Shown: positions 4,428 to 23,703 of the stretch, piece after piece
How the letters are laid out: every line of letters starts with the position of its first letter
How positions within the stretch are numbered: the first letter of the stretch is position 1
IMG/VR virus record: IMGVR_UViG_3300035565_000019
Coordinates: 1-56,658 of that record
Origin: a virus
Taxonomy: Duplodnaviria; Caudoviricetes
Strand: one strand, 5' to 3'
DNA: 56,658 nt
Position numbers and translations under genes: made by a program
Notes under the pieces: generated by a model
What the model saw: the letters and a program-made list of their open reading frames with translations, nothing else
What the model was told of the DNA's origin: nothing
The model's database searches: none

Positions 4428-4437
4428 TAAAAACTCG

Positions 4438-4459
4438 GAAGGCGGCTTCGGTCGCCTTC
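4438..4459 (+). terminator. C(UUCG)G tetraloop hairpin after the capsid transcription block
   Basis: GAAGGCGGC-TTCG-GTCGCCTTC, 9-bp stem; poor U-tract. Confidence 0.55.
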
Positions 4460-4486
4460 TCCTAATTCTTGAAAGGAAGGTGATCC

Positions 4487-5008
4487 GTGGTCTTGCTTGA
4501 AACTATTGTTGGGCGCGATCATATCGCAGATATGTGCGGGATTGCGGCTGGCCTTCCAGAAGGTTGTTTTGTAGAGGTTGGCGTTTATAAAGGCGGCTGT
4601 GCCCAACAATTCGAGTTTCTTGCAGTGCAGCAAGGACGCAAGATGTTTGCGTACGATACATTTACCGGTATACCGTATCGCTGTGATAAAGACTCTCACA
4701 AGGTAGGGGATTTTAACGATACGTCTTACGAGGCAGTAAAGGCCGGGCTGCCCAATACGACAGTAGTGCAGGGTGTCTTTCCTGCCAGCGCTGTTGAAAT
4801 GCCGCCGATCGCATTCGTGCATCTTGACTGCGACCAATACCAGTCTATCAAAGATTCAGTAGAATATTTGAAAGATAAAATGGTAGAAGGCGGCGTGATG
4901 ATATTTGATGATTATGGCTGCTTGCCTGGTGCAACAGAAGCAGTAGATGAATTGTTTGGCGATAAGGTACAGCGCACCAAGCACAGCAAGGCAATAGTAA
5001 CCTTTTAA
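4487..5008 (+). CDS. TylF/MycF-family (macrocin O-methyltransferase-like) SAM-dependent methyltransferase
   Basis: VEVGVYKGG, YDTFTG, VHLDCDQYQS and IFDDYG motifs. Confidence 0.85.
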   Translation: MVLLETIVGRDHIADMCGIAAGLPEGCFVEVGVYKGGCAQQFEFLAVQQGRKMFAYDTFTGIPYRCDKDSHKVGDFNDTSYEAVKAGLPNTTVVQGVFPASAVEMPPIAFVHLDCDQYQSIKDSVEYLKDKMVEGGVMIFDDYGCLPGATEAVDELFGDKVQRTKHSKAIVTF

Positions 5009-5018
5009 GGAGAAGAAA

Positions 5019-5387
5019 ATGTCATTAGCTGAAAAGTTTCAAATAACGACACCGTATATTGACGAGGGCAAGCCTGATGAAAAGTGGGTCACTCCAACAC
5101 ATCATCATGATGGCGTACCGCAAAGAGATGATAAATTTAATGTTTTGCCCATCGGCTACGAAGCCACAAGTGAACGCGATAAATTTGTCCATGGATTCGG
5201 CGGCAATACTGATGTCTCTGGCGGGCTTGAACCTGAAGTGTTCGTCAAAGGATTCAAGCGTCGCGATATGAAGGCTACTGACGACCAGTATGGTGGCGAG
5301 CATATCGATTTGTTCTATGGCGAAGCAGTAGACGAAAAGGGGCAAGTTGGTTTTGCTGAACGGAACAATTACCTCGACCGGTTATAA
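5019..5387 (+). CDS. Hypothetical protein
   Basis: RBS AAGGAG, 122 aa. Confidence 0.6.
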   Translation: MSLAEKFQITTPYIDEGKPDEKWVTPTHHHDGVPQRDDKFNVLPIGYEATSERDKFVHGFGGNTDVSGGLEPEVFVKGFKRRDMKATDDQYGGEHIDLFYGEAVDEKGQVGFAERNNYLDRL

Positions 5388-5390
5388 GCC

Positions 5391-5843
5391 ATGTCTCTGC
5401 CACAATCAGCCTATATTCATAAGACACAGCTGACAGATAATGACGGCTTTCAGTCTGAGAATGTAAATAAGGTCGCAGTTTATTACTGGGACTCTATAGG
5501 TCTTGCCTGGGTAAAAGGAACTCAGGCAAGCGGAGGAGGCGGAGGTGGTGCTGTAACAATTGCGGATGGCGCTGATGTGGCGCAAGGATCTACTGCTGAC
5601 GCAGCAATAATTGGAGATATTGCAGGCACGTTGTCTGCTAAGTTACGCGGTATCAATGCAACACTGCAAAAAATACCAGGACTTGCGTTGCCTATTTACG
5701 ATTATGTTTTACAAACACAAAGCGCAACGCAAGATGTTTGGGTGTTTAAGACAGGTGGCGGGGCAGGCACTACAGTAGCAACTGTAACGATCAATTACAC
5801 AGACAGCACAAAAGCAGTAATAACTAACGTGGCTAAAACTTAA
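5391..5843 (+). CDS. Putative virion structural/fibre-associated protein
   Basis: Gly-rich linker, VTIADGADVAQG and TVATVTINYTD segments typical of phage structural proteins. Confidence 0.55.
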   Translation: MSLPQSAYIHKTQLTDNDGFQSENVNKVAVYYWDSIGLAWVKGTQASGGGGGGAVTIADGADVAQGSTADAAIIGDIAGTLSAKLRGINATLQKIPGLALPIYDYVLQTQSATQDVWVFKTGGGAGTTVATVTINYTDSTKAVITNVAKT

Positions 5844-5844
5844 A

Positions 5845-6882
5845 ATGCCGTATACTTTTAACCCATTAACAGGGCAATTTGATTACTACCAGACCGCCAC
5901 TGGAGCGACAGGCCCGCAGGGGCCGGCAGGCCCGATGACATTCGGGCGTGACGGGGATGACGGAGAAGATGGTCTGTCTATAGTAGGGGCACCTGGCGCT
6001 CCGGCTACTCCGGGTAATGCTGCCTATGGCGAAATGGTGATTATCAACAATGCCACAGGGTTGGCAATGACCTTGCAAAACACCGCATATCAAGTGGTTG
6101 CAGGTTGGCAGGTTGATGACACGAATGGATTTACGTTCGCTGGGAGTGCTTTGACCACACAGACAGCGGGAGCGTTCTTCACAACTTGCTCGGTATCTGT
6201 CCAGAGTACATCATCGAATCAGGTTTATAACTTCCAGGTTTTTCGTAATGGGGTTGCAATTCCGGCCCACAATGCCTTATTAAAATTAACTAATAGTGCA
6301 GATATAAATTCAATAACAGTTGTCGGTACTATAGATGGAGTAAACAAGAATGACGTATTTACTCTGTGGGCAACTAATCAGACAAGTGCAGGTCAGACAC
6401 TTACGGTTTCTTATGCGAACTTTTCCATCACCGCGATACAAGGCTCGACAGGACAGCAAGGAATAGCGGGATTTGGCTTTGATGGTGAGCCGGGAGAAGA
6501 TGGATTCTCTATTGCTGGGGCACAGGGTGTTGCTGGAACCAACGGAACAATAGGCCGTGACGGATTGACGGTTATTGGTCAGGATGGGGTTGACGGGGAA
6601 GATTCATTCGCTTTCTCTATGCCTTTATACCCAGCGACTACTGTGGTAACTGGAACCACAGCTAGCCAAACTCCCGCTGTTGGAGTATCTTTGAATTATG
6701 CAAGGGAAGACCACACTCACGGTACTCCGGCAGCGGGAGCAGGAAGCAACTGGACGACTGTCAAGAACAGTGTTGGTGGGGCTGAGACTTTAACAATAGG
6801 TTCTGGATTTCAGTTTCTTTGTTGGAATAACTTTGTTAATAACAACATAATTAATAATAGTGGGGATATGGTGATTTTATGA
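5845..6882 (+). CDS. Collagen-like fibre protein with a central beta-sandwich domain
   Basis: Several short Gly-X-Y runs (GATGPQGPAGP, GRDGDDGEDG, GAQGVAGTNGTIGRDG); N-terminal FNPLTGQFD motif. Confidence 0.7.
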   Translation: MPYTFNPLTGQFDYYQTATGATGPQGPAGPMTFGRDGDDGEDGLSIVGAPGAPATPGNAAYGEMVIINNATGLAMTLQNTAYQVVAGWQVDDTNGFTFAGSALTTQTAGAFFTTCSVSVQSTSSNQVYNFQVFRNGVAIPAHNALLKLTNSADINSITVVGTIDGVNKNDVFTLWATNQTSAGQTLTVSYANFSITAIQGSTGQQGIAGFGFDGEPGEDGFSIAGAQGVAGTNGTIGRDGLTVIGQDGVDGEDSFAFSMPLYPATTVVTGTTASQTPAVGVSLNYAREDHTHGTPAAGAGSNWTTVKNSVGGAETLTIGSGFQFLCWNNFVNNNIINNSGDMVIL

Positions 6883-7070
6883 GTACCTACACTGCAACAG
6901 AGCAAGCTACTCCGGCAACACCCTCTGCCGGACAACAAACAGTTTATCCCAAAGTAGGAGGTCAATATGTTATAGATTCTGGTGGGCTGGAGAAGCAAAT
7001 AGTAGCAGGTCAAGGTTCTCCAAGTGGACCACTGATGCAATATCTTTATATTCAATTCGGGGGCATGTAA
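6879..7070 (+). CDS. Small structural-module protein
   Basis: ATGA overlap with the upstream gene. Confidence 0.5.
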   Translation: MSTYTATEQATPATPSAGQQTVYPKVGGQYVIDSGGLEKQIVAGQGSPSGPLMQYLYIQFGGM

Positions 7071-7073
7071 AAC

Positions 7074-7472
7074 ATGGCAAATAATTACGCAGCACCAATG
7101 GTTCAGACTCCGGTTATCGGAGTTGCCTCAGTTACGACGGCCCTAACAACAAGAACAAACATTACAGGCACTACAGGGCTTGTACAGCTTACTGTCTTAA
7201 ACGCCACCCAACCAACCAAGGTTGATGCAATTGACGTGCAAGGTACTGCAACAGGGGCGGCTTGCCTTGTCTGGATATGGCTATACAACGGAACTACGTC
7301 ATATCTCTGGAATGAAATTGTGATGAATGGAGCAACAGGTTCTACTACAGTCGCGGGCGATAATAAGACATTGCCGTTATATAACTTTATTGTTCCTGCA
7401 GGATGGCAACTTTATGCCAGTGCAACAGTAACGCAAAACATGAACGTATATGCTCGTGGAGGCCAGTTCTAA
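7074..7472 (+). CDS. Putative virion beta-sandwich protein
   Basis: Thr-rich 132 aa ORF in the structural operon. Confidence 0.55.
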   Translation: MANNYAAPMVQTPVIGVASVTTALTTRTNITGTTGLVQLTVLNATQPTKVDAIDVQGTATGAACLVWIWLYNGTTSYLWNEIVMNGATGSTTVAGDNKTLPLYNFIVPAGWQLYASATVTQNMNVYARGGQF

Positions 7473-7473
7473 A

Positions 7474-8322
7474 ATGGCTAGTTTTGACGGACAACCTGCC
7501 CTTCAAAAAATTATGCGGATGATGGGCAAGTCTGGTGATATTGACATCATCAGTCAAGACCCTTCTCCGTTTACGTTCGGTTCTTTTAGCTTACTTACAT
7601 ACAGTAATAATGCTAATAATATTTGGGTTATTGCCGGTAACCAACCTGTTATGGGTTATTGGAAGCATAACTTTGATTTTGATACTCTAGGTAACGTACA
7701 AGGAAGAAATGAAGCAGATGCTTGTTCGTTGTGGTTGCTAGGCGAAGATAATACGATGCGGTACTTCGGAGCACCTACAGGTCCGAGATTTTCAACACCA
7801 ACATTCACTTTATACAAGACATTTAATTTATTGACAGGTGCCGAAACTTATGTTGGACCAGTCATACCGAGCCAGACAGTAGGTATTACAGGTACGACGA
7901 CAAATAACTCAGCGCAGGCTGGCGCGATTGGCGAAGTCATCTCAGCTACCATTGCAACTCCTGGAACTTCTCTTACTACAGCAACTCCAGCTAACGTAAT
8001 CACTACTCCATTCTTGGCTTTGACAGCAGGTGATTGGGATGTGTGGGGTGAGATATGTTTCTTGCCAGCAGCAACGACAAGCATTACGCAACTGGCTTTT
8101 GGTCTTAACTCTGTATCTGCAACGCTCCCAGCAGCTAACTCAGGGTTGGTACAAAACACTTTCACAGCATTTGTTCCTACCGCCATTCCTCAATGTGATA
8201 ATGTAACAGCGCGCAGAGTTTCCTTATCTGGAGCAACGACATATTATTTAGTAGCGCAAGCAGCATTTACAGTAAGCACCCTATCGGCATTTGGTACACT
8301 TTACGCAAGACGCAGACGTTAA
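7474..8322 (+). CDS. Putative tail fibre/virion protein
   Basis: GTTTNNSAQAGAIGE, LTAGDWDVWG and terminal ARRRR motifs seen at the C-termini of phage fibres. Confidence 0.6.
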   Translation: MASFDGQPALQKIMRMMGKSGDIDIISQDPSPFTFGSFSLLTYSNNANNIWVIAGNQPVMGYWKHNFDFDTLGNVQGRNEADACSLWLLGEDNTMRYFGAPTGPRFSTPTFTLYKTFNLLTGAETYVGPVIPSQTVGITGTTTNNSAQAGAIGEVISATIATPGTSLTTATPANVITTPFLALTAGDWDVWGEICFLPAATTSITQLAFGLNSVSATLPAANSGLVQNTFTAFVPTAIPQCDNVTARRVSLSGATTYYLVAQAAFTVSTLSAFGTLYARRRR

Positions 8323-8337
8323 TTAAAGGAGAAAAAG

Positions 8338-8745
8338 ATGGCATCAAATAAAGCAATACGCATAGGCCCGATTCAGTTGGGCACGACAACTACTACCAAC
8401 CTGTTCAATCCGCCTACGCTGACCGGCGGCGTGAATCCGCCCGCATTGAGCACGGCATCGTATGTCATCATCAGGCATATCCGAGTGACGAACAATACGG
8501 CTGGGGCATTGCAGTTTGCCACTTGGCTCGGAACAACGGGCACGAATGCAACGGCAGCGGCATTTGCGTTCCCCGGTATCGCGTCGGCAGGCACGCTGAC
8601 GAACGGTGTGTCTGTGGCGGCCAACTCGTATGTCGATTGGTATGGCGCGGTTCGCATGGATACGGCGGATTTCTTGGTTGGGGGTGCATTAACTTCTGCT
8701 ACCGGACTGACTCTGGAAATGGAAGGCGAGATTGGCGTAGCATAA
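8338..8745 (+). CDS. Putative virion beta-sandwich protein
   Basis: RBS AAGGAG; Thr/Ala-rich; IRHIRVTN and SVAANSYVDW segments. Confidence 0.55.
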   Translation: MASNKAIRIGPIQLGTTTTTNLFNPPTLTGGVNPPALSTASYVIIRHIRVTNNTAGALQFATWLGTTGTNATAAAFAFPGIASAGTLTNGVSVAANSYVDWYGAVRMDTADFLVGGALTSATGLTLEMEGEIGVA

Positions 8746-8756
8746 CAGGAGGCAGT

Positions 8757-8993
8757 ATGAAAGAATCAATAGTACAATCTAGGCATTGGGATAATCCTGA
8801 AATAAAAGTCAGGATTGACCAAAAAGGAATCGAAGTAGAAATCTCACTGGAAGATTTTTGCAAAGCAGTAGTTGCAGAGATACCACATCCAGCGTTTACA
8901 TTTACTCGTAAGAGTCTTGAAACGGATATTCTCGGAGCATTAGAGATTGTTCTTAACAAGACAAAAGAAGCGACCAACCACGCAGTACATTAA
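8757..8993 (+). CDS. Hypothetical protein
   Basis: RBS AGGAGG before ATG 8757; 3' part of the listed 8523-8993 ORF. Confidence 0.55.
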   Translation: MKESIVQSRHWDNPEIKVRIDQKGIEVEISLEDFCKAVVAEIPHPAFTFTRKSLETDILGALEIVLNKTKEATNHAVH

Positions 8994-9005
8994 AGGAGTT
9001 TTGCT

Positions 9006-9371
9006 ATGCAAACCAAGTTTGACCCTACAAAAAATCATGGCGTTATTTATAATCATCCCGCTGCTATGTTCGAACAAAACGGCATTTTATATGACGGTGT
9101 TGGCGAGCCTATTGAGCAAGCCAAGCCAAAGTCTACGACGCCTTACAAGCAGCCAGTGGCCAAAACTAAAATTGCTAAAAACGTAACGCCTGAAGATTTT
9201 CTAAGTGACATTCTTGATGGCGGGCCTGTAACCCAGGCCAATGTGAAAAAAGAATCCGAACTGCGCAAGCTAGATTGGTCTGACATACAAATGGCAGCCA
9301 TTACAATGAACATTGAAAAGTTCAAGAAAGGCTCGACTAATATGTGGAAGTTGGCAGAGGAGCAAGCATAA
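9006..9371 (+). CDS. Hypothetical protein, possible C-terminal winged-helix-like domain
   Basis: RBS AAGGAG; C-terminal FLSDILDGGPV...WKL pattern. Confidence 0.5.
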   Translation: MQTKFDPTKNHGVIYNHPAAMFEQNGILYDGVGEPIEQAKPKSTTPYKQPVAKTKIAKNVTPEDFLSDILDGGPVTQANVKKESELRKLDWSDIQMAAITMNIEKFKKGSTNMWKLAEEQA

Positions 9372-10957
9372 TGGTCTGGAAAATCGATGGTGCACAAGGC
9401 GCCGAGAGCAAAAAGATCGTTTGGGAAGCTGCGCCCTATTTGCGCGGCAAAGGACTTGACCTTGGCGCAGGAATGTTCAAGATCATCCCGCATGCTATCT
9501 CTGTAGATAGCGGGGATCATGCTGCTTTATTTGGCCATCACTTTGTCGCAGAGTTAAAGTTGAATTGCGAAAAACTGGATATTATCGCTTCGCAGTCCAT
9601 GGATTATGTGTTTAGCAGCCATTTACTGGAGCATATCGAAGATCACAAAGCAGCCTTGAAAGAGTGGTGGCGCGTTATTAAGCAAGGCGGCAAACTCGTA
9701 CTGTATCTGCCGCATGCTGACTTCTATCCGCGCATGGGTCAACCTGGCGCCAACCCGACACATCTGCATGACTTCCTGCCGCAAGATATTATTGACGCTA
9801 TGAAGGAAATATCATCAGAAGCACATCAGTTTGATTTGATAGACTGCCAAGAACGGAACGAAGGCGAGGAGTATTCAATGTTCTTGGTATTCCGGAAGAT
9901 CCAAGCTAAAAGCCCATCGTTTACTTACAAACTTGATAAGTTTAGCGGTCAAAAAAGCGCGCTTGTCTGTCGCTTTGGCGCATTTGGCGACCTGATGCAA
10001 GCATCTAGCGTGTTTGCTGGATTAAAGAAGCAAGGATACCATGTTACATTGATGACTAGCCTGCCTGGAGCTGATGTCGTGTCACAAGACCCACATATTG
10101 ATTCAGTAATGTTGTTGGATGTCGATCAGATTCCTAATGCGAACCTCGGAGACTTTTGGCGCTACCAAGCCAAGAAGTTTGATAAATTCGTCAATCTGTC
10201 TGAGTCAGTCGAAGGCACATTCTTGGCTATGGGCGGACGTACTCCTCATGCATGGCCACCTGCGCTACGTCATAAGATGATGAACAAGAATTATGTCGAG
10301 TTCCAGCATGAGCTAGCTGGAGTGCCGCATGATCCGCAAGTCAAATTCTTTGCAACTGAAGACGAAAAGAAGTGGGCGAAAAAAGAGCGCGCTAAGATGG
10401 ACGAGTTTGTCGTTATGTGGTCACTTGCAGGCTCCAGCGTACACAAAGCATGGGCTGGCCTTGATAACATCATGGCTGCTTTGCTTATACAATATCCTAC
10501 TGTACATATTGTATTGGTAGGCGGGCCAGAGTGCGCAATGCTTGAAGCAGGATGGGAGAAGGAATCCCGTGTAACCAAGACATGCGGCAAATGGAGTATT
10601 CGTCAATCGTTGTCATTTATTACCGAGGCCAATTTACTAATAGGGCCCGAGACTGGAGTTATGAATGCTGCTGCGAATGAAGAAGTGCCGAAGATCTTGT
10701 TTTTATCTCATTCGACTAAAGAGAACCTATCACGTGATTGGGTTAACACAACATCCTTGTATGGTAAAGGAACTAAGTGCAAGGGACGTGGTGATGATGA
10801 AGCACCAGCATGCCACCAAATGCATTATGGGTTCGAGCACTGCACTAAAGACGAGGAGAGCGGTACGTCGCAGTGCCAAAAGGATATTTCGGTCGAGGAA
10901 GTTTTCTATCACGCGACATGCATCATTGACATAGGTGTGGAGAGGATGAGGGCTTAA
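9371..10957 (+). CDS. Class I methyltransferase fused to a GT9 (heptosyltransferase-like) glycosyltransferase
   Basis: N-terminal LDLGAG and FSSHLLEHI...EWWRVIKQGG; C-terminal RFGAFGDLM, LIGPETGVMNAAA and Cys-rich C..DISVEEV tail typical of WaaC/WaaF-like GT9; TAATG coupling. Confidence 0.8.
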   Translation: MVWKIDGAQGAESKKIVWEAAPYLRGKGLDLGAGMFKIIPHAISVDSGDHAALFGHHFVAELKLNCEKLDIIASQSMDYVFSSHLLEHIEDHKAALKEWWRVIKQGGKLVLYLPHADFYPRMGQPGANPTHLHDFLPQDIIDAMKEISSEAHQFDLIDCQERNEGEEYSMFLVFRKIQAKSPSFTYKLDKFSGQKSALVCRFGAFGDLMQASSVFAGLKKQGYHVTLMTSLPGADVVSQDPHIDSVMLLDVDQIPNANLGDFWRYQAKKFDKFVNLSESVEGTFLAMGGRTPHAWPPALRHKMMNKNYVEFQHELAGVPHDPQVKFFATEDEKKWAKKERAKMDEFVVMWSLAGSSVHKAWAGLDNIMAALLIQYPTVHIVLVGGPECAMLEAGWEKESRVTKTCGKWSIRQSLSFITEANLLIGPETGVMNAAANEEVPKILFLSHSTKENLSRDWVNTTSLYGKGTKCKGRGDDEAPACHQMHYGFEHCTKDEESGTSQCQKDISVEEVFYHATCIIDIGVERMRA

Positions 10958-10958
10958 C

Positions 10959-11915
10959 ATGGCGACTTCAGGCACATACAGTTTTACTTGCAATCGAGAC
11001 CAGATCATCCGCGATGCAATGCTTAATATTGCAAAGCTAGATGAAATAGAAGGCCCGACACCTCAAGAAACAATTGATTGTGCCTTTAAGCTGAATATGC
11101 TGGTCAAGCAGTGGATGGGTACAAAAGACTTTGCGCCTGGACTTAAGGAGTGGACGCAACGTCGAGGCTTCCTTTACATGGATGGTCGCACTGGCAAGTA
11201 TAGCCTTAGTCCGACATCTGTTGGATGGACTAACACGTTCAATAGCACCACTACAATGGCGTCAGTATCGTCTGGCTCTATTATTGCAGTTACATCATCT
11301 GCTAACATGACTGCAGGTGATAACATTGGACTTGACCTTGATATAGGGTATATTTACTGGTCTACCATTGCAATCGGCGGAATATCTGGCAATAACATAA
11401 CTATTGCCGGCACTGTTCCGTCGTTGGCGTCTAAAAGCTCAATTGTTTATAGTTACACTACTGGCGCGCAGCAGCCATTAGAAGTGCGCACAGCATTTCT
11501 ACGTGATTCGTTTTACAGTGATACGCCATTAAAATTGATGACTTCTAGCGAGTATGATTATTTGCCAAACAAGACTGATCCTAATAATCTTTCTGATCCA
11601 ACTGCTATTTATTACGAATGGCAATTGGCGCAAGGTAATCTTTACGTCGATGTCGGTGGTGCTGCGGATTTGTCCAAGTATATTTGCTTGACATACTTGG
11701 AGGAGACCCAAGATTTTAATAATCCAGCAGATGCTCCAGAATATCCGCAAGAATGGTTTTTACCATTGACTCTGGGTTTAGCAAAGCAGATAGCGCCAAT
11801 GTATCGTGCAGAGTGGACTCCGTTGCTGCAAGACAACTATACGACTGCGTTGGCAATAGCGCAGAAGAAAGGTGCAAACCGCGAAACGCTGTACTTCCAA
11901 CCAGGGCTAGACTAA
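10959..11915 (+). CDS. Head-tail adaptor/tail tubular protein A-like
   Basis: MATSGTYSF..RDQIIRDA start, PTAIYY and PQEWFLPLTLGLA motifs; upstream of the gp10-like gene. Confidence 0.7.
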   Translation: MATSGTYSFTCNRDQIIRDAMLNIAKLDEIEGPTPQETIDCAFKLNMLVKQWMGTKDFAPGLKEWTQRRGFLYMDGRTGKYSLSPTSVGWTNTFNSTTTMASVSSGSIIAVTSSANMTAGDNIGLDLDIGYIYWSTIAIGGISGNNITIAGTVPSLASKSSIVYSYTTGAQQPLEVRTAFLRDSFYSDTPLKLMTSSEYDYLPNKTDPNNLSDPTAIYYEWQLAQGNLYVDVGGAADLSKYICLTYLEETQDFNNPADAPEYPQEWFLPLTLGLAKQIAPMYRAEWTPLLQDNYTTALAIAQKKGANRETLYFQPGLD

Positions 11916-13399
11916 TGCCGCTCACACCCCTTTCATTGTTCGGAACAAGCATCAAGTCGATATCTCCTGCCATGACAGCACAGAGACGCTTGAATTGCTT
12001 TTACATTCCAAGGGACGATGGTGATAAGAGTTCAATTGCGCTGATTGGTACCCCAGGATTACTTTTGTGGGCATCTTTGCCTACTTACCCCATACGAGGG
12101 TGGCGCGTGGTGGGCTCTACGCTCTACGTAGTCGCGGGTGCCGTATTCTATAAAGTGAGCACAGCAGGCACTATTACTGCCATCCCAGTCACATTCGGTA
12201 CGGGCATACCACTAGGCACTAATAAAGTGAGTATGGTGGATAATGGCGTTCAGCTAGGCATTGTTGATCACATCAACCTGTACTGCTATACCATTACTAC
12301 AGGCTCTTACCAACAGTCTAATTTGAATTCTGCTGAGGCATTCGGTATTGTTTCAGACTTCGCCACCCAGGGCGTTGCTGGCGCGACCACTATCACGTTC
12401 CTTAATGGCCGTTGCACTGCTGAGAAAGCTGGTTCACGTCAGGCTTATACGAGCGGTTCGTATGACATTACTGCATGGGGCGGAAACGCCACACACAGCG
12501 CCCTAATATTCTTCACAAAGGAAAATGCTGCTGATCTATTGGTGGCTGTCGAAGCATTTAATGGCACAATGATTTTATGGGGGGATTCGACGATTGAATA
12601 CTGGCAAGACGTTGGTACTTCACCGTTGCCATATTCCCGTATTCAAGGCGCGACACAGACATATGGGTTAGCTGCTAAATCATCAAGGGCGGTGGTAGAA
12701 AACACATTGTTCTTCTTGGCCAAGAACCCGCAAGGTCATATTAAAGTGATGTCGATATCTAATGGATATGCCCCGCAACGCGTAAGTACCGACGACGTAG
12801 ACGATTTCATAAATGACATGACTTCATTTACAGACGCGGCAGCTCTGACTTATGTCGCCTATGGGCATACGATGTATCAGCTGACCTTCCCCACTGACGG
12901 AAGAACCCTGTTGTATGACACGACGACAAAAGTCTGGCAAGAGGCGCAGACAGGGCTAGATTTGATTGGGCGTCATCAAGCTGAACTCGGCATTTCTTTT
13001 AATGGCCAGAATATCGCTGGTGATTATTCAAGTGGAAGTATGTACACGTTTGATGAATATACCTTCACTGATAATGGTGTGGCTATAAAGCGCCAAGTAG
13101 CGTCCAAACATATCCGTAACGGAGGCAATCCGCTCACCCTGTCAGAGCTTGTGCTTGATATAGAAACTGGTGTCGGATTGCAGGCTAGTCAGGGCAATGA
13201 CCCGCAAATAGCCATGGAGCGCTCTAAGGATGGCGGTAGAACATACGGGCAACCCAGACTGACATCGATGGGCAAGGCTGGCCAGTATCTGTCCCCAAAA
13301 GTTCGCTGGCGCAGACTAGGCACGAGTGATGACCATGTGTTTCGCTTCACCGTGACCGACCCTGTAAAGTTTGTAGTTACTGGAGGCTCTGTATCATGA
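11915..13399 (+). CDS. P22 gp10-like packaged-DNA stabilisation/tail hub protein
   Basis: TPGL start, YQLTFPT..TLLYD, SKDGGRTYG and VRWRRLG motifs; TAATG coupling at 11915. Confidence 0.8.
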   Translation: MPLTPLSLFGTSIKSISPAMTAQRRLNCFYIPRDDGDKSSIALIGTPGLLLWASLPTYPIRGWRVVGSTLYVVAGAVFYKVSTAGTITAIPVTFGTGIPLGTNKVSMVDNGVQLGIVDHINLYCYTITTGSYQQSNLNSAEAFGIVSDFATQGVAGATTITFLNGRCTAEKAGSRQAYTSGSYDITAWGGNATHSALIFFTKENAADLLVAVEAFNGTMILWGDSTIEYWQDVGTSPLPYSRIQGATQTYGLAAKSSRAVVENTLFFLAKNPQGHIKVMSISNGYAPQRVSTDDVDDFINDMTSFTDAAALTYVAYGHTMYQLTFPTDGRTLLYDTTTKVWQEAQTGLDLIGRHQAELGISFNGQNIAGDYSSGSMYTFDEYTFTDNGVAIKRQVASKHIRNGGNPLTLSELVLDIETGVGLQASQGNDPQIAMERSKDGGRTYGQPRLTSMGKAGQYLSPKVRWRRLGTSDDHVFRFTVTDPVKFVVTGGSVS

Positions 13400-13662
13400 G
13401 CGCAAAACTCAGTCCACCCCCGTTTCAAAATGCAGTAGATGAGAACGGTAGTAAATTGTCTAGCTTGTGGAATGCTTGGATAAGCGCTTTGTACAGCTAT
13501 GTTCAGACGGCTAATTCTATAATAACTGAGTCTGCGGCAGTAATATCAGCTAATTATTCGATAAATTCTGGTAACAATGGCGCTAGTGTCAGCCCAGTGA
13601 CAATAGCAAGCGGCATGACTGTAACTGTCCCAACTGGGTCTATTTGGTTAATCTTGGTGTGA
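13396..13662 (+). CDS. Small tail protein
   Basis: Follows the gp10-like gene; PVTIASGMTVTVPTGSIW motif. Confidence 0.55.
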   Translation: MSAKLSPPPFQNAVDENGSKLSSLWNAWISALYSYVQTANSIITESAAVISANYSINSGNNGASVSPVTIASGMTVTVPTGSIWLILV

Positions 13663-13669
13663 GGTCAAA

Positions 13670-14743
13670 ATGTCAGTAGGAATTAGAGCAGGAGCGACAA
13701 GCGGGGCACTTCAAGTGAATGGGGTGGATGCAGTCACGTTCGACTCCACGGGCCTAACAGGAGGTACTGGTTCGATAACTGGGAACATAAATCCGACTTC
13801 TCTGAATTCAGGCCAACTCTCAGGCTTCCGTAATAAAATCATCAACGGCGACATGATGGTGTCGCAGGTGAATGCAAGCACTTCTGTCACGGTGACTGCC
13901 GCCGCTGCATTGAACTATACAATCGACCAATGGTACTCATACTGCACTGGCGCTAACGTAACTGCTCAGCGTGTCGCAGGAACGAGCAATGACAGGTATC
14001 GCTACCAATTCACGGGAGCGGCTTCTGTAACCGCAATAGGCTTCGCTCAACGTATCGAGCAAGCTAACGTGTACGACTTGGCGGGGCAGACGGCAATCGT
14101 CGGGGTTGACCTTTCAAACTCTTTGCTCACTACTGTCACATGGACATTGAATTATGCGAACAGTGCAGATACGTTCGGCACTCTTGCAAGTCCGACAGTA
14201 ACGCAGATTGCTACAGGAGCATTCACGGTAAGCAATTCGCTGACTCGTTTCTACACTCCGGCAATAAGTATTCCGGCAGAGGCAACAACTGGTCTTGAAT
14301 TAAAGTTGACAGTTGGGGCACAAACATCTGGGACTTGGGTAATTGGTAAGGTGCAACTCGAACAAGTATCCGCAGGGGCAACTTTAGGTACAGCGTTCGA
14401 GCATGTTCCTTATGAAACACAGCTCAGGTGGTGTCAGAGGTATGTACGACCTATTTCTACACAAGGCAATGGACAATTTGTGGGGCAAGCATTTAATGCT
14501 ACTGGTGCAAATTGGGTTACTTTTGGAGTACCGATGCGCGGGGCGGTTACTTTGTCGCAAACTACAGGAGCGTATACAACAAATGCCGCTGGTGCTAATC
14601 AAGCTATCACTACATTAGTAGTGCAGCCGGGGGGTCAAGCAGGTGACATTTGGCTAAATACTACAACCGCGACGGGGTTAGTTGCAGGAAATGCTACTGT
14701 TTTACAGCCCGCAACAGGTACTTGCATCTTGTCACAAATGTAA
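13670..14743 (+). CDS. Tail fibre with a carbohydrate-binding-like domain
   Basis: GFRNKIINGDM..SQ, VQLEQ and LRWCQRY motifs of a common phage fibre family. Confidence 0.75.
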   Translation: MSVGIRAGATSGALQVNGVDAVTFDSTGLTGGTGSITGNINPTSLNSGQLSGFRNKIINGDMMVSQVNASTSVTVTAAAALNYTIDQWYSYCTGANVTAQRVAGTSNDRYRYQFTGAASVTAIGFAQRIEQANVYDLAGQTAIVGVDLSNSLLTTVTWTLNYANSADTFGTLASPTVTQIATGAFTVSNSLTRFYTPAISIPAEATTGLELKLTVGAQTSGTWVIGKVQLEQVSAGATLGTAFEHVPYETQLRWCQRYVRPISTQGNGQFVGQAFNATGANWVTFGVPMRGAVTLSQTTGAYTTNAAGANQAITTLVVQPGGQAGDIWLNTTTATGLVAGNATVLQPATGTCILSQM

Positions 14744-14745
14744 TC

Positions 14746-15072
14746 ATGGCATCCTTCTTCTACCCCCTGTACGCAATCGCAAGTCTGCTAGTGACCATCT
14801 CGGCATTCTTTCTCGCGCCTATACTTCCGATATTTGCAAACGACAAAGGAATGCTCCCTTCTTGGCTGTCTTGGTATCAGATGCCAGACAATCCATTATG
14901 GGGAGACAACTTATGGGCAATAGACAATCCTTCCTATAGCAAGTATCGCTTGGCTATGACTTACCAATGGAGGAATCCCGCCTTATGCTTGTCCCGCTTC
15001 TCCGTCTTTTGTGTTAACTATAAATCAAGTAAGCGCAGACTAAATGTTAAAGCTACATACAATAGAATTTGA
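14746..15072 (+). pseudogene. Probably truncated fibre-associated membrane protein
   Basis: TM segment, LPSWLSWYQMPDNPLWGD and WRNPA motifs; the sequence then degrades where the AT-rich hydroxylase cassette begins. Confidence 0.4.
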
Positions 15073-15592
15073 TGTTAAACCTTTATTAAAGGTAATTGAG
15101 GACAACCCACAGCTATGGAACCAGCATACATCGCGCACAAAGTCTCTTGACTCGCCACATCGCGATATGTCGGACATTTGGGTTAGATACAATGATCCCA
15201 AAAATTTTACAGGAGATCGTCTAGCATTCAATGAGCCACATGAGTCAGTATGGTATCCATCAGCCGCCATACCTTATGTCAAGGATATTGTATATGATAT
15301 AATGTGCAGGGTTAAAGGTGAACGTCTTGGGGGCATATTAATTACTAAATTACCAGCGGGTAGGCAATGTTATCCGCATATAGACGGAGGTTGGCATGCC
15401 AAATATTATGATAAATATGCTGTTCAATTAGCCGGGCATCCACTTCAATCATTTAATGTCGGGAACGAAAAATTAGTGACGAAGGCTGGAGATGTGTTTC
15501 AATTTGAGAATGATGTAATTCATTGGGTAGAAAATAACAGCCCTGAAGACAGAATTACCCTTATAGTTTGCATTAGGAGCGATCGTGGATAA
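15044..15592 (+). CDS. Aspartyl/asparaginyl beta-hydroxylase-like 2OG-Fe(II) oxygenase
   Basis: YPHID (HxD), FENDVIHWVENNSPEDRITLIVCIR (distal His and Arg). Confidence 0.8.
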   Translation: MLKLHTIEFDVKPLLKVIEDNPQLWNQHTSRTKSLDSPHRDMSDIWVRYNDPKNFTGDRLAFNEPHESVWYPSAAIPYVKDIVYDIMCRVKGERLGGILITKLPAGRQCYPHIDGGWHAKYYDKYAVQLAGHPLQSFNVGNEKLVTKAGDVFQFENDVIHWVENNSPEDRITLIVCIRSDRG

Positions 15593-15908
15593 AGTTGAAA
15601 TCAAGACACTGCATCATTTTTCCAATGGAGTTTATGCAAAGGAAATGCATATTCCTATGAATCATCATGCTCAAACACATAAGCACTCTTATGACCACAT
15701 GAGCATTTTAGCTAAAGGTAAAGTTGGAATATTTGTAAATGAGAATCCGGAAGTAATTTATGAAGCTCCTGCTTGTATTGAAATTAAAGCTGGTATATCT
15801 CATACAATCAATGCTTATGAAGCCGCAGTCTGGTTTTGCATTCATAAGACAACAGAAACTGATGAGAAAAAAGTAGATTCAATACTGATTGAAAAGAACG
15901 GAGAATAA
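15585..15908 (+). CDS. Cupin-domain protein
   Basis: HHFSNGVYAKE, HKHSYDH, AGISH and WFCIH motifs. Confidence 0.75.
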   Translation: MDKVEIKTLHHFSNGVYAKEMHIPMNHHAQTHKHSYDHMSILAKGKVGIFVNENPEVIYEAPACIEIKAGISHTINAYEAAVWFCIHKTTETDEKKVDSILIEKNGE

Positions 15909-15909
15909 T

Positions 15910-17427: not shown

Positions 17428-17445
17428 TAAGTTAAGGAGAAGAAA

Positions 17446-19239: not shown

Positions 19240-20246
19240 TGGCAGCCCCTTGGAAAATGGATGATGCGCAAACATCTGACACGCCAGTTTTTACCATGAA
19301 TAGCTCAGATGCTCATATAGGAATGGAACATAAAGAGTCATACAGCCAATTTGGAGAAGGCACAGAGGCATACCCTGGCGGACCTACCATTGCAGAAGCA
19401 CGCCGCGCAAAGACATTTGAGATATTAGTTGATGCGGCAAGTCTTATTGCGCCAGTGGGGCGCGCTGGTATGGGTGCGATATTAGCTAGCGAACCATCAG
19501 AGGTTGAAGCAGCAATAAAAGCGCCATCTGTTAACTGGATTGAGCAAGTTGTTAAAGATTTGCTTCCACATAATTCTAAAGCTTTTACTGCAACAGAGGG
19601 AATGACAGAAAGGCAAAAAGAAGCTCTAAAACTTTATATGCACGCACCTGCGCCATTTCAACCAAGAATAAAACAGCAAAAAGCTGCGCTTGAGCATGCA
19701 GTTAACCAAGGTCATTTTACAAAAGAGCAAGCAGCTAATGTTAATGATTTGCGCAGCAGCTTAAATACCGCGCTATCTACTGAATTAAAATTACCTGGCC
19801 CAATATATCGTGGGCTTTCTGAATATCATCCTGATATGAAAATTGGCGATATTATTGGTGGAGATTCACCTGCATCATTTGGGCATCACCCAGCTTCTGT
19901 AGTTGAAAATTTTCAGTCTTCACCTGAATATATTAGGAAAGTTTCTGCAACACCAGATGTTATGCTGCAAGTTCCGGCAAACTCACTTGTGCGTGGAGTA
20001 GTTCCGAATAAAGATATTTCAGGAAAATATGCGGCAGAGAGTGAAGTGCTTTTGCACCCAGATAATAAGTTAGTTATCCAGAATATTGAAGATAAAGATA
20101 ACAGAAAAATAGTCACTGCTATGCCCGTTAAAAACTCAAATGCTCAAAATGTTAAACTTTGGTCATTAGCGCCTAGCATAGCTTTAAGTCCATCAGTAGC
20201 GAGCACTAATACACTAATAGAAAGCTGGAAGAAGGAGAAAGAATAA
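19239..20246 (+). CDS. ADP-ribosyltransferase (VIP2/C3/T4 Alt-like, R-S-ExE class)
   Basis: IYRGL, PASF and AESEVLL motifs in the correct order and spacing; TAATG-coupled on both sides. Confidence 0.75.
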   Translation: MAAPWKMDDAQTSDTPVFTMNSSDAHIGMEHKESYSQFGEGTEAYPGGPTIAEARRAKTFEILVDAASLIAPVGRAGMGAILASEPSEVEAAIKAPSVNWIEQVVKDLLPHNSKAFTATEGMTERQKEALKLYMHAPAPFQPRIKQQKAALEHAVNQGHFTKEQAANVNDLRSSLNTALSTELKLPGPIYRGLSEYHPDMKIGDIIGGDSPASFGHHPASVVENFQSSPEYIRKVSATPDVMLQVPANSLVRGVVPNKDISGKYAAESEVLLHPDNKLVIQNIEDKDNRKIVTAMPVKNSNAQNVKLWSLAPSIALSPSVASTNTLIESWKKEKE

Positions 20247-22357
20247 TGGCGTTTACAATCTCAGACGATTTAGAAGCAGAGTTGAAAATCCCGCCAGAGG
20301 TGCAACAAGGACGTGATGCTATTGCTGCGGACCAAATACGGCGTGAAGTAGTTAATCCTGATATTAATGAGGAGACTGGGAAGCCTGTTACACTGTCAAA
20401 AGATCTTCTTAAAATAAAACCTGCTAAATTTACTATTACAGACGATCCTGCAGATGCAAAACATGATGCATCTGAGTATGAAGCGCCGCCTATTAAGTCA
20501 TTAAAGCGGCGCATCGGGCGCAATGTGCGCGGCGCCATCGAGGCAGGGCTTACCATGGCTACTGGCGCTTTAGGCGGCATCGCAGGACTTGGCGGCGAAG
20601 CGTATCAACTTGCCCGCCATGAAGCAACGACGCCTCGCCGTGCCGAGAAGTTAATGGAACCTGGCGCTGTGAAAGAGACTATCCAGCAAGCAATGACATA
20701 CCAGCCCCGCACTGAAAAGGGCAAGGAATACGTACAAGATATTGCCACGCCTGAATCGCTTCTTAATCCTTTGACCTATGTCAAGGCGCTAAGCGACGTT
20801 GGTGAAAGCATCAAAGATCAAGTCGATTCTCCTGAAGCCAAAGCCGCAGTAGACTTGACGCTAAATGCGGCATCTATGGCATTGCCTAAAGTAGCTGGCG
20901 CCATAACTAGCGCGCCAAAATATCTTATGTCAGGCAGCGAAACAGCGCGCAAGACCGCGCGCGAGAATATCGCTGCATTCAAAAAAGAAGGCATTACGCC
21001 ATCTCTTGGCCAAGTGTCTGCAGGCGGAGCAACTAAAGGCGCTGGCGGCAGTGAAGCACTAGTTGCGGAAGAAGCGCCAAAGATCGCCGCGCAAGCTACT
21101 AAGCTTGCAGATAAGTTAAGCCCAATTACTACATCTGAAGAAGCAGGCAATGTCATACATGAAGCAATTATGGGCAAGCCTGTAACCGAGACTCTTACGC
21201 CAAAACGTAAAGCCATTGAATCTCCAACTGGTGAGCGTATCGGCGGATGGGAGCAAGATGTTAATGAACGTGAAAGTATATTGCATGATACTTGGAAGAA
21301 AATGGTAGGTGAGGATGCTAAGGTCTATCTAAAGTCTACATTGCTGGCGCTTAAAGAAATGACAACGCCAACTGCTGGCGCAGAAGCTACGACTTCCGGA
21401 TTGCTAAACACAAAGATCATGGATATTCGCCGCAGAATGGTAGATGACACAGGCAAGCCAAGGTCAATGCCGCTTAATGCCATTGAAGACGTGCGCTCGC
21501 TTATCGGTGAACTGACTGACCCTACAATGGAAGTTACTATATCAAAAGGCCAAGCTAATAAATTATATGGCGCCATTAAATCAGATGTTGGCGAAATGGT
21601 TGCTAGTAAAGGAGATAAAGTCAAGGCCGCTTATAATGACGCATTCGAATATTCACGCAAGAAGCACGAAATCGTCAGTAGTTTAATGGAGCCATTGCGC
21701 ACGGCCAAGATTCCTGAGCAAGCATTTACTTTTGCTACGGCTGGCACTCCTGAAGGTGCTAGCCAACTTCGCACTTTGTTCCAGGGAAAAGGTGAAGGAG
21801 TTTCAAAAGTAAGCGGTCTAAATAAAGCTGAGCAAGATGTTGTACGTTCTGTTATGTTCAGAAAGTTAGGAGGCGCAGATGCCGGTGAGTTTAGCCCAAC
21901 CAAGTTCCTTGCTAACTGGAATAACATGCATAATGACGCAAAGGAAGTTCTTTTCGGCGCTCCGGGTTCTGCGCTGCGTAATCATTTAGACGCCTTAAAT
22001 ACGGTTATGCTTAAGTCTAAGAGTACTGCGACAACAATTTATGAATTACGTAACTATGCCGCAGATCATGGCATGATTGGCTCAGCAACTGCGCTAGCTG
22101 TATTATCTGGCCGACATGGAATGGCTTCTATTTTGCTTTCAGGACTTGGCGCTGGGGCTGTAGCAGGTCGGCTAATACAGCGCCCATTCTTTGTCAAGTG
22201 GCTGACTTCTGCCTCGAATAAAAAGCCGGCAAGCATAGTTCCAATGCTTGGCATGTTGGCGCAAAAAGCCGCAACATTGCCACCTAATGACCAACAAGAC
22301 GTAAAAGAATATCTTGCCAATATACAAAGCATCACAGCACCAGGAGGAAAACAATAA
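20246..22357 (+). CDS. Large internal virion/ejection protein
   Basis: 703 aa helical; MTYQPRTEKG and FSPTKFLANWN motifs, C-terminal hydrophobic Gly/Ala segment. Confidence 0.65.
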   Translation: MAFTISDDLEAELKIPPEVQQGRDAIAADQIRREVVNPDINEETGKPVTLSKDLLKIKPAKFTITDDPADAKHDASEYEAPPIKSLKRRIGRNVRGAIEAGLTMATGALGGIAGLGGEAYQLARHEATTPRRAEKLMEPGAVKETIQQAMTYQPRTEKGKEYVQDIATPESLLNPLTYVKALSDVGESIKDQVDSPEAKAAVDLTLNAASMALPKVAGAITSAPKYLMSGSETARKTARENIAAFKKEGITPSLGQVSAGGATKGAGGSEALVAEEAPKIAAQATKLADKLSPITTSEEAGNVIHEAIMGKPVTETLTPKRKAIESPTGERIGGWEQDVNERESILHDTWKKMVGEDAKVYLKSTLLALKEMTTPTAGAEATTSGLLNTKIMDIRRRMVDDTGKPRSMPLNAIEDVRSLIGELTDPTMEVTISKGQANKLYGAIKSDVGEMVASKGDKVKAAYNDAFEYSRKKHEIVSSLMEPLRTAKIPEQAFTFATAGTPEGASQLRTLFQGKGEGVSKVSGLNKAEQDVVRSVMFRKLGGADAGEFSPTKFLANWNNMHNDAKEVLFGAPGSALRNHLDALNTVMLKSKSTATTIYELRNYAADHGMIGSATALAVLSGRHGMASILLSGLGAGAVAGRLIQRPFFVKWLTSASNKKPASIVPMLGMLAQKAATLPPNDQQDVKEYLANIQSITAPGGKQ

Positions 22358-23703
22358 TGGCAAAACTGCTGATAGTCGACACTGATAATGTGGGCTTATC
22401 GCTTGCTTGGCGTTCTGCACAGGCAGGGCATGAAGTGCGCTGGTACGTCAAACCGAAGAAATGTAATCATCCCGATACCGGCCGCGGATTCAAGGGCGTG
22501 ACTAAAGTAGAAAACTTTGTGCCGTCAATGATGTGGGCAGACCTTGTCATTTGTACTAGCAATGATGATTATCTTGATCGCCTGGACTTCTTCAAGAAAA
22601 AAGGCGCTAATGTCTTTGCGCCGACCACTGCTTCTGCAAACTTAGAGATCAGCCGTAAAGACGGTATGGAGCTGATGGAAAAGTGTGGTATCGAGACCGC
22701 GCCATACAAGACATTCAAGCGTATGGAAGACGCGGAAGCCCATGTCAAGAAGACAGAAGAGCGGTTCGTGTTCAAGACGCTTGGCGATAACGAAGACAAG
22801 GCGTTGACCTATGTTTCCAAGAATGCGGCAGATATGCTCGAATGGATGAAGAGGATCCGCGAGTCTGGCGCCGTGCCAAAAGGCGATGTTATGCTGCAGA
22901 CATTTATTGATGGCATAGAGTTTGGTGTTTCCAGGTTCATGGGCCAAGATGGATTCGTCGGTCAATGGAATGAGTCATTCGAGCATAAGAAGCATATGAG
23001 CGGCAATCACGGTTGCAATACAGGTGAAATGGGTACCATTGCCGCCTTTACCAAAGACTCCAAGATAGGCAAAGATACGCTGGCTAAGTGCGAAGCAGAA
23101 CTTGTTAAGCTCGGCCATCTTGGCGATGTAGCCATTGGGTTCATGATCGAGAAGGCGACTGGCAAGCCATATCCGACTGAATGGACATGCCGCTTTGGCT
23201 GGCCTATCGAGAATATGATGATCGCCGCGACCAAAGGAGACCCTATACAGTGGATGATAGACGCCAAGAACGGAAAAGATACGACATCATTCAGTGAGGA
23301 TATTGGATGCTGCCTGGTATTGACACATGGTGACTTCCCGCATGGTAATAAAGACCGCCAGGATGTGACAGGCGTGCCTATTTACGGCGTAACTAAGGGC
23401 AATAAAAAGTACTTGCACCCGCAAGGCGTGAAGATTGATATAATGCATGATATGGAAGGCGACAAGATCGTCGAGCGGCCATTATGGAATTCTGCCGGAG
23501 ATTATCTTGCGGTTGTGACAGGCTTTGGAAATTGCGTTAAACAAGCAGCAGAACGGACTTACAAGACTGCCAAACAATTGCACGTGTCTAATATGCAGCT
23601 ACGCGATGATGTTGGCGAAGGCATGGAAGAGCAATTGCCAGAACTGCATAAGTTCGGCTATGCAACGCACTTCACTTACGATGGCAAAGGAGACAGGAAA
23701 TGA
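22357..23703 (+). CDS. PurD (GAR synthetase)-like ATP-grasp ligase
   Basis: LEISRKDG, EHKKHMSGNHGCNTGEMGT (cf. PurD DHKR..GDxGPNTGGMG), EWTCRFGWP (cf. EFNxRFGDP), LRDDVG. Confidence 0.8.
   Translation: MAKLLIVDTDNVGLSLAWRSAQAGHEVRWYVKPKKCNHPDTGRGFKGVTKVENFVPSMMWADLVICTSNDDYLDRLDFFKKKGANVFAPTTASANLEISRKDGMELMEKCGIETAPYKTFKRMEDAEAHVKKTEERFVFKTLGDNEDKALTYVSKNAADMLEWMKRIRESGAVPKGDVMLQTFIDGIEFGVSRFMGQDGFVGQWNESFEHKKHMSGNHGCNTGEMGTIAAFTKDSKIGKDTLAKCEAELVKLGHLGDVAIGFMIEKATGKPYPTEWTCRFGWPIENMMIAATKGDPIQWMIDAKNGKDTTSFSEDIGCCLVLTHGDFPHGNKDRQDVTGVPIYGVTKGNKKYLHPQGVKIDIMHDMEGDKIVERPLWNSAGDYLAVVTGFGNCVKQAAERTYKTAKQLHVSNMQLRDDVGEGMEEQLPELHKFGYATHFTYDGKGDRK

Follow-up and report, generated by a model that had tools for sequence, protein, structure and literature searches.

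The IMG/VR record IMGVR_UViG_3300035565_000019 (hereafter the window: the whole stretch of DNA that we analysed, which is the entire record, 56,658 bp) represents a podovirus whose complete genome measures 56.7 kb; it has a tail hub of the P22 type, a portal of the SU10 type and a terminal repeat of 123 bp. Its plus strand carries a morphogenesis operon ordered as portal, scaffold-like open reading frame (ORF), capsid, several fibre-like ORFs including a collagen-repeat protein, hub, ORFs in the place of ejection proteins, and tail fibre, with the portal gene (Pfam SU10_portal) spanning the record ends. Among these genes lie five ORFs with enzyme-like matches: a TylF-type methyltransferase, a methyltransferase fused to a GT9-type glycosyltransferase (MT-GT9), an AspH-like oxygenase, a cupin-like protein and a PurD-like ATP-grasp ligase (Table 1). 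Here, we find that they fall into two tiers: MT-GT9 and the ATP-grasp protein are core genes, inherited with the capsid and tail module and not with DNA metabolism, whereas the TylF, AspH-like and cupin-like genes are accessory and patchy. That MT-GT9 and a rewired ligase of the virion operon are conserved as well as the terminase across a large phage group hints at an enzyme-catalysed step by which the particle is made or armed.

A profile of the ATP-grasp protein yielded 80 viral loci, and 27 whole records of at least 33 kb were searched for the other enzymes (G and L numbers below are our handles for related genomes and loci). Counts come from tblastn-type searches; an ORF-level matrix of 14 genomes undercounts because the simple ORF caller broke down in relatives of high G+C content (G012, G024). 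MT-GT9 was present in 26 of the 27 ATP-grasp-bearing records, and the sole miss, G008, is a linear contig that is broken there and also lacks the neck/adaptor and hub genes. By contrast, TylF was found in 8/27 (one of them a 38-aa remnant), the AspH-like gene in 11/27 and the cupin-like gene in 6/27, all weak, and TylF and AspH co-occurred in four records, which is the level expected by chance (Fisher p = 0.68). A first-pass annotation of the window had proposed that all five ORFs form a single virion decoration system; the patchy distribution of three of the five, with TylF and AspH independent of each other, overturns that proposal.

As a control for ascertainment bias, we used 12 records of at least 25 kb that were found with the capsid protein and lie outside the first set. 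MT-GT9 was present in 11 of these and the ATP-grasp gene in five, and both were present in the two records that are at least 90% complete. The seven without ATP-grasp either miss that side of the locus or end 3.7-7.5 kb downstream of MT-GT9, and the gap between the two genes in complete genomes is 6.8-11.5 kb. Five or six of the seven misses are clearly truncations; G042 (7.5 kb) and G043 (7.3 kb) are not decisive.

The window and 14 fetched genomes have in common the terminase, portal, scaffold, capsid, neck, hub, first ejection protein and fibre N-terminus, along with MT-GT9 (47-66% identity) and the ATP-grasp protein (46-66%), for which terminase (56-73%) and portal (42-62%) give the scale. 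Replication and nucleotide genes are almost never part of this common set (ThyA in 3/14, other nucleotide genes in 0 or 1/14). The order (TylF) - MT-GT9 - neck - hub - [variable slot] - ejection proteins - ATP-grasp - fibre is conserved, also in 34-41-kb, high-G+C relatives, so that MT-GT9 has a fixed place just 5' of the neck and hub genes and the ATP-grasp gene always follows the last ejection-protein gene and precedes that of the tail fibre. The conserved neighbourhood that the first-pass annotation named as a check exists for these two genes and the morphogenesis module, and TylF recurs 5' of MT-GT9, but the AspH-like and cupin-like genes sit in the variable slot. Conservation of both core enzymes at about the level of terminase and portal, across hundreds of metagenomic relatives, makes it unlikely that they are dispensable passengers.

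MT-GT9 (numbered by its 528-aa form) matches Pfam Methyltransf_11 with 39.4 bits and Glyco_transf_9 (PF01075) with 21.6 bits, just below the cut-off of 22, and PF01075 is precomputed on many, though not all, of its homologues. In an AlphaFold2 model built from an alignment of 45 homologues (predicted local distance difference test, pLDDT, 91.4), residues 190-525 match the GT9 structure 3tov (Z 23.9), WaaF (1psw, Z 23.6), TibC (Z 20.2) and WaaC (Z 20.1), and Foldseek returned 3tov and WaaF with E 4e-13 and 8e-12; residues 5-180 match class-I methyltransferases with Z 14-16. These fold matches settle the GT9 identity despite the borderline Pfam score. The S-adenosylmethionine (SAM) motif (D30/G32/G34) is invariant in the 45 sequences, as is D207, which follows the strand at 195-200 of the model within R-F-G-A-F-G-D. 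By its context D207 is a candidate for the catalytic base Asp, which in WaaC is Asp13. For TibC, the residue to compare is Asp110 (PMC4358343). Before the last helix lies a Cys/His cluster in which C481, H482, C491 and C502 never vary among the 45 sequences and C470 is kept in at least 90% of them. Database searches returned 2434 matches at E ≤0.001, many of which may rest on nothing but the methyltransferase domain. In seven relatives (G011, G015, G019, G020, G027, G033, G036) the otherwise well-conserved MT-GT9 gene is interrupted by single TAG or TGA codons in frame or by short gaps, for which sequencing errors, recoding and small insertions are all options.

The ATP-grasp protein can be aligned over its entire length with Aquifex PurD (2yw2) and has a TM-score of 0.76-0.78 to PurD-named models with the full domain set (GARS_N, GARS_A, GARS_C). 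Its own Pfam matches are to GARS_A (50.5 bits) and GARS_C, with no GARS_N signature, and against the NCBIfam purD model TIGR00877 it scores 92.1 bits, far from the cut-off of 288. Residues E97, R100, K140, Q181, E188 and K211 align with E100, K103, K143, E185, E192 and K214 of the Aquifex enzyme, and R279 corresponds in the 2yw2 alignment to the acyl-phosphate Arg of PurD and is retained; the roles of the PurD residues for ATP, Mg and the acyl group are those of a modelling paper (PMC8880213). The motifs for the specific substrates have changed. In PurD, the Arg and Glu of GGREHA are proposed to hold phosphoribosylamine (PMC2978367), and RxGDPE supplies the proposed general-base Asp and the glycine-binding Glu (PMC2978367, PMC8880213). 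Relative to 2yw2, GNGGREHA is replaced by DTDGVGLS, which turns the Arg/Glu pair into V/G, and RLGDPE by RLGWPI, and the resulting W282 and I284 do not vary among 31 viral sequences. Because the phosphoribosylamine site and the general base are lost, the protein is predicted to be a ligase with new substrates and not a purine enzyme.

The family to which this ligase belongs is mostly viral in the ESM Atlas, where its members show GARS_A and GARS_C but not GARS_N. We recovered 615 homologues at E ≤1e-5, the best 120 of which are 61-79% identical and come mostly from fragments of a few kb, with some contigs up to 63 kb. LAGLIDADG-type inteins interrupt three homologues (P0057, P0244, P0245), and the insertion sites located in two of them fall in ATP-grasp motifs, N221|T222 (GPN|TGEMG) in P0057 and T277|C278 (EWT|CR) in P0244; two independent inteins in catalytic motifs would fit an active, strongly constrained site. 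A search of longer homologues for fusions to structural or ejection proteins found none, with only two returned, both intein-bearing. A complex prediction of the ATP-grasp protein with the N-terminal 190 aa of the downstream fibre scored 0.00, was run with no controls and carries no weight either way.

Table 1. Features of the window discussed in the text (positions in nucleotides; aa, amino acids)
Feature	Position	Strand	Remarks
Morphogenesis operon	1 to 27 kb	+	
Major capsid protein	2394..3383	+	phrog_1357, E 1.9e-16
Stem-loop, 10 bp, G+C-rich, followed by T-rich tail	4437..4460	+	gap between capsid gene block and TylF
TylF-type (sugar) O-methyltransferase, accessory	4487..5008	+	Pfam TylF (PF05711) 58.8 bits, cut-off 23
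Small conserved ORF	9006..9371	+	invariably just 5' of MT-GT9; stop overlaps MT-GT9 start (TAATG)
MT-GT9	9371..10957 (ATG 9371; ORF open from 9344)	+	methyltransferase ~residues 1-180, GT9-type GT-B ~190-528
Conserved neck/tail protein, candidate adaptor	10959..11915	+	directly 5' of hub; phrog_12985; 10/14 genomes
P22 gp10-like tail hub ('packaged DNA stabilization protein')	11753..13399	+	phrog_578, E 1.7e-88
Two tail-fibre-like ORFs, 88 and 357 aa	13396..14743	+	PHROG tail-fibre matches
DUF7338 protein, hydrophobic N-terminal helix	14650..15072	+	Pfam DUF7338 59.6 bits
AspH-family 2-oxoglutarate/Fe(II) oxygenase, accessory	15044..15592	+	Asp_Arg_Hydrox (PF05118) 28.5 bits, cut-off 22.6
Cupin-like small beta-barrel protein	15585..15908	+	'gp13 slot' between tail tube/hub and first internal virion protein
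Four large ORFs, 512, 597, 335 and 703 aa	15889..22357	+	place of podovirus ejection/internal virion proteins
PurD-like ATP-grasp ligase	22357..23703	+	overlaps both neighbours (TAATG, ATGA)
Tail fibre/spike	23700..25181	+	conserved N-terminal anchor ~190 aa, variable Ser/Thr-rich C-terminal part
Thymidylate synthase homologue (ThyA), 463 aa	28099-29490	-	
ORF at large-terminase position, 536 aa	50474-52084		5' of portal

Other statements of the first-pass annotation concerned the layout of the genome and stood up better. The five ORFs do lie on the plus strand among structural genes and belong to the late operon; four of the enzyme assignments (TylF, MT-GT9, AspH-like, ATP-grasp) are credible, the 'cupin' being under its Pfam cut-off. 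Translational coupling to neighbours is borne out by gene overlaps for MT-GT9, AspH, cupin and ATP-grasp (TAATG at 9371 and 22357, ATGA at 23700, and 8 nt shared by the AspH and cupin genes) but not for TylF, which follows the previous gene after a 59-nt gap containing a stem-loop. Nucleotide metabolism was said to lie on the opposite arm, and Pfam scans of 16 minus-strand ORFs agree, with dCMP deaminase, MazG-like, ThyA, SNF2 helicase, PD-(D/E)XK nuclease, PolA and EndoVII families, and further an exonuclease, a primase-helicase and a Dam-like methyltransferase; four plus-strand ORFs scanned alongside gave no family. The virion proteins nearby were described as rich in Ser and Thr, and the fibre-like ORFs indeed contain 18-26% Ser+Thr vs 9.7% on the minus arm, though such a content is ordinary for fibre proteins.

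Among the accessory enzymes, TylF is a short form that matches profile positions 92-241 of 264. Its PHROG matches are phrog_6608 (methyltransferase) and phrog_8858 ('glycosyltransferase'), the latter at profile positions 243-380 of 395, and a PHROG glycosyltransferase family carries the same methyltransferase domain. TylF lies directly 5' of MT-GT9 in G012, G021, G024, G027 and the G028 copy, and 725 nt from it in G004, while a remnant in G006 adjoins MT-GT9. The AspH-like protein has H112, D114 and H160 (HxD...H) and the 2OG-site Arg R170 invariant in 13/13 sequences, and its model (pLDDT 87) adopts the 2-oxoglutarate (2OG) oxygenase fold, with proline hydroxylases, AspH and ALKBH5 as neighbours in the Protein Data Bank (PDB). 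The substrates of these neighbours include free amino acids as well as nucleosides, proteins and RNA, and the fold thus does not narrow the substrate. An AspH-like gene also occurs among many small ORFs in the 39-kb circular genome of Limnohabitans phage DC33 (PQ492659.1; L124), a record whose taxonomy, Inoviridae, looks wrong. The cupin-like ORF scores 23.0 bits against Cupin_2 (PF07883), under the cut-off of 27.2, and is better matched by PHROG 'short tail fiber/adhesin' families (E ~1e-15); it belongs to a widespread small podovirus family at the T7 gp13 position, and the enzyme label is not secured.

The AspH-like and cupin-like genes occupy a variable cassette between the hub and the first ejection protein (13396-15908 in the window), which we compared in G005, G006, G009, G013, G016, G017, G023, MW202796 (L006) and the cultured Pseudomonas phage PfAn1 (L123). 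Its content is heterogeneous: GNAT-like proteins in G005 and G013, another small, unrelated family of 135 aa in G006, G009 and G023, a GCN5 acetyltransferase in MW202796, AspH and an acetyltransferase just ahead of the 'internal virion proteins' of PfAn1, and a cupin-like protein in phiAp1, P26218 and Vibrio 234P9. A profile of the relatives' small post-hub proteins matched only the cupin of the window (E 6.5e-8), a match driven by 2/7 sequences. Within the slot, the two tail-fibre-like ORFs are missing in 13/14 relatives and specific to the window genome. The DUF7338 protein, which likely starts at Met 33, is a membrane-type protein within a structural operon, and the last 29 nt of its gene are shared with the start of the AspH gene.

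Elsewhere in the operon, the stem-loop upstream of TylF resembles a terminator or attenuator; it is the strongest single site and intergenic, with overall site counts no higher than in shuffles. The small ORF before MT-GT9 was found in 6/14 genomes by blastp. The hub protein, whose true start is probably near 11915, matches 43 phage records by tblastn. Only the first of the four large ORFs, which probably starts at ATG 15910, matches phrog_598 ('DNA ejection'), and the position of the other three points to ejection-type proteins. Capsid identity is 84-94% among the best 80 of 393 related stretches (loci L148-L227). These genomes show much lower identity for terminase (56-73%), portal (42-62%) and hub (34-54%), and it is unusual in phages for the capsid to rank so far above them. 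The ORF at the large-terminase position is conserved in 13/14 relatives (56-73% identity), and it had no Pfam match at E ≤0.001. On the minus arm, the ThyA homologue matches solved thymidylate synthase (TS) at residues 12-122 and 306-462 (E 3e-58); the insertion of ~183 aa between the two TS blocks matched nothing and could be an inserted mobile domain or an unrecognised module.

Across 50,697 phage records we found neither near-identical DNA nor a member with both core enzymes, and no cultured member; a viral-contig scan with the hub protein alone gave no confirmed relatives. A search of genome contigs for a host gave five matches, all to contigs of metagenome-assembled genomes (MAGs). Only one lies inside a large contig, of 942 kb and labelled Thermoplasmata: a ~34-kb phage copy at G028:C6:528350-562295 (L138-L140), with 47-52% G+C vs 60-62% in its flanks. 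Half of its own capsid gene stands at either end of this copy, the C-terminal part on one side and the N-terminal part on the other, which points to chimeric assembly and not to a prophage, and the match was rejected as host evidence. A MAG contig labelled Nevskia (L128) gives a weak lead to a host.

What the core enzymes do can be framed in several ways. We regard it as possible rather than probable that they carry out post-translational heptosylation and methylation, possibly with amide ligation, of conserved virion proteins. Late in infection, MT-GT9 would move a heptose-type sugar from a host nucleotide-sugar to Ser or Thr of a virion protein that the group conserves. Methylation of that sugar would fall to the fused methyltransferase and, in genomes that have it, to TylF. 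The PurD-like ligase would use ATP to form an acyl-phosphate and then modify a virion component or the glycan through an amide or ester bond, with substrates other than glycine and phosphoribosylamine. The enzymes would serve particle assembly or particle surface chemistry, not nucleotide metabolism. Virions of mycobacteriophages are glycosylated by glycosyltransferases of the structural operon, which sets a precedent for the location. For the chemistry, the bacterial GT9 enzymes TibC and AAH modify beta-helical adhesins in this way. TibC heptosylates Ser of a beta-helical adhesin and holds its protein substrate with a Cys4 iron finger (PMC4358343). A bolder version, in which the group needs both enzymes for an infectious particle and these, with TylF where present, build a methylated, possibly amino-acylated heptose glycan on conserved virion proteins, we put forward only tentatively and consider doubtful.

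Several points weigh against modification of virion proteins. No result here points to an acceptor, and as the fibre genes, which encode the Ser/Thr-rich candidates, vary while the enzymes are constant, the acceptor would have to be a conserved protein. We know of no protein-modifying PurD relative. In the ATP-grasp protein, Thr277 stands where PurD has the Asn of its E-x-N motif, and with Trp in place of the general-base Asp as well, the protein could have a non-catalytic ATP-grasp role. The more distant metagenomic phage MW202796 has the ATP-grasp gene (34% identity) without MT-GT9, and the two core enzymes therefore need not share one pathway. The GT9 domain is slightly nearer to lipopolysaccharide (LPS) heptosyltransferases (Z 23.9, 23.6) than to TibC (20.2). 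In place of an N-terminal beta-barrel MT-GT9 has the methyltransferase, with the structural alignment starting at TibC residue 92, and its cluster of Cys 470/481/491/502 and a conserved His differs in spacing from the Cys339/342/358/370 of TibC (PMC4358343).

The affinity to LPS enzymes is also where a host-envelope role draws its strength. MT-GT9, with TylF, might add and methylate heptose on the LPS core or another surface glycan, and the AspH-like oxygenase and DUF7338 protein might act on envelope lipids or glycans, so as to block superinfection or keep progeny off debris. The nearest structures are indeed LPS heptosyltransferases (3tov and WaaF, Z ~24; WaaC, Z 20), the JGI annotators' family name is 'ADP-heptose:LPS heptosyltransferase', TylF-type enzymes methylate sugars according to their family name, DUF7338 has its hydrophobic helix and a gene overlapping AspH, and PF05118 presumably also includes the lipid A hydroxylase LpxO. 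We nevertheless judge this role unlikely, since the genes lie in the late structural operon with overlapping codons, away from integrase and early genes, and the enzymes are constant across relatives whose fibres, and presumably receptors or hosts, differ. Assembly of LPS core late in a lytic cycle would alter little of the existing surface, and the conserved Cys/His cluster may have its parallel in the protein-acting TibC. Gene order also fits a role in entry: the ATP-grasp, AspH-like, cupin and GNAT proteins would be made for the ejection apparatus, unlinked to glycosylation by MT-GT9, and either be packaged and injected to act in the new cell or periplasm or modify ejection proteins. The ATP-grasp gene always follows the large ejection-type block (in the window, the 14 genomes, L002/L004 and MW202796), slot enzymes or small proteins precede the ejection proteins in PfAn1, MW202796, G005, G013, phiAp1, P26218 and Vibrio 234P9, and MW202796 does without MT-GT9. 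Packaging, however, is not shown by gene order alone, and the two longer ATP-grasp homologues returned carry inteins and no fusion to a structural or ejection protein, so that such a role also strikes us as improbable.

Two further readings tie the enzymes to nucleic acids or their precursors. Phage GT-B enzymes related to LPS enzymes put heptose on 5-hydroxymethylcytosine (5hmC) in DNA, and many such DNA-glycan clusters are linked to thymidylate-synthase homologues (bioRxiv 10.1101/2023.12.21.572611). The strings 'GT9' matched in that preprint are contig names (e.g. GT94), not the family. With this precedent for hexose or heptose transfer, and with a dCMP deaminase, a MazG-like protein and a ThyA homologue in the window, the enzymes might decorate bases of the phage DNA. 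We find this very unlikely: MT-GT9 and the ATP-grasp gene travel with the capsid and tail genes while replication genes are replaced (ThyA in 3/14, other nucleotide genes in 0 or 1/14), which argues against DNA modification; ThyA looks like a canonical TS (E 3e-58) apart from its insertion; no C5-cytosine methyltransferase or TET-like oxygenase appeared in the 20 ORFs scanned (16 of them on the minus arm); and the fold matches are GT9, with T4 beta-glucosyltransferase absent among the matches listed. The ATP-grasp gene could instead be a true purD that boosts host purine synthesis, the other enzymes being metabolic passengers, as full-length PurD homology and the automatic names 'phosphoribosylamine--glycine ligase' would have it. 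A score of 92 vs 288 bits against the purD model, the absence of GARS_N, the replaced GGREHA and RxGDPE motifs, the fixed place in a structural operon and the mostly viral family reduce the likelihood of this to close to nil, and our analysis contradicts automatic annotation of the gene as a purine 'auxiliary metabolic gene'.

Should the bolder version hold, it would add a first case of enzymatic virion glycosylation among phages other than the actinobacteriophages, and its ligase would be the first PurD relative to act on protein or glycan. The post-translational chemistry of phage particles is nearly unexplored outside mycobacteriophages, and it affects how particles adsorb, how stable they are, how the immune system recognises them and how they evade the surface defences of the host. 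The PurD-like family also shows clearly how viruses can refit an enzyme of central metabolism, and PurZ, a relative of PurA, is a comparable case. A literature search for these enzymes in phage structural modules found no paper. Modification enzymes encoded in a structural operon are a known kind of system, of which the combination described here is a variant.

Comparison with characterised systems places the two core enzymes between several known types. The likeness to mycobacteriophage virion glycosylation lies in late glycosyltransferase and methyltransferase genes set among capsid and tail genes; the glycosyltransferase family there is another one, whereas the present system belongs to a podovirus, probably of Gram-negative hosts, adds an ATP-grasp ligase and has virion proteins as its putative targets. 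The accessory slot resembles the T7 gp13 position, in that cupin-like and AspH-like ORFs and their homologues (phiAp1, P26218, Vibrio 234P9, PfAn1) lie between the hub or tube and the first ejection protein, but its content varies (cupin, GNAT, 2OG oxygenase, others) and the likeness to gp13 is one of position. With PurD, the ligase shares the same three-part architecture over its full length, the ATP and Mg residues and the acyl-phosphate Arg, and departs from it where the phosphoribosylamine Arg/Glu, the general-base Asp and the glycine-binding Glu have become V/G, W and I, all conserved among the viral proteins. WaaC, WaaF and 3tov are the best structural matches of MT-GT9, whose invariant Asp, placed behind the first glycosyltransferase strand in the setting G-x-x-G-D, may correspond to theirs; MT-GT9 differs in its fusion to a methyltransferase, a score under the Pfam GT9 gathering threshold, its virion-assembly context and perhaps its Cys/His cluster. 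The bacterial autotransporter heptosyltransferases (BAHT; TibC, AAH) share the GT9-type GT-B fold (TibC 4rap, Z 20.2, 272 residues aligned, root-mean-square deviation 3.7), and the Cys-rich, putatively metal-type cluster inserted in the C-lobe of MT-GT9 before the last helix may recall the TibC iron finger (PMC4358343). The presumed targets of MT-GT9 would likewise be Ser/Thr-rich, beta-structured surface proteins, but where TibC and AAH are encoded next to an autotransporter, MT-GT9 is encoded in a phage morphogenesis operon.

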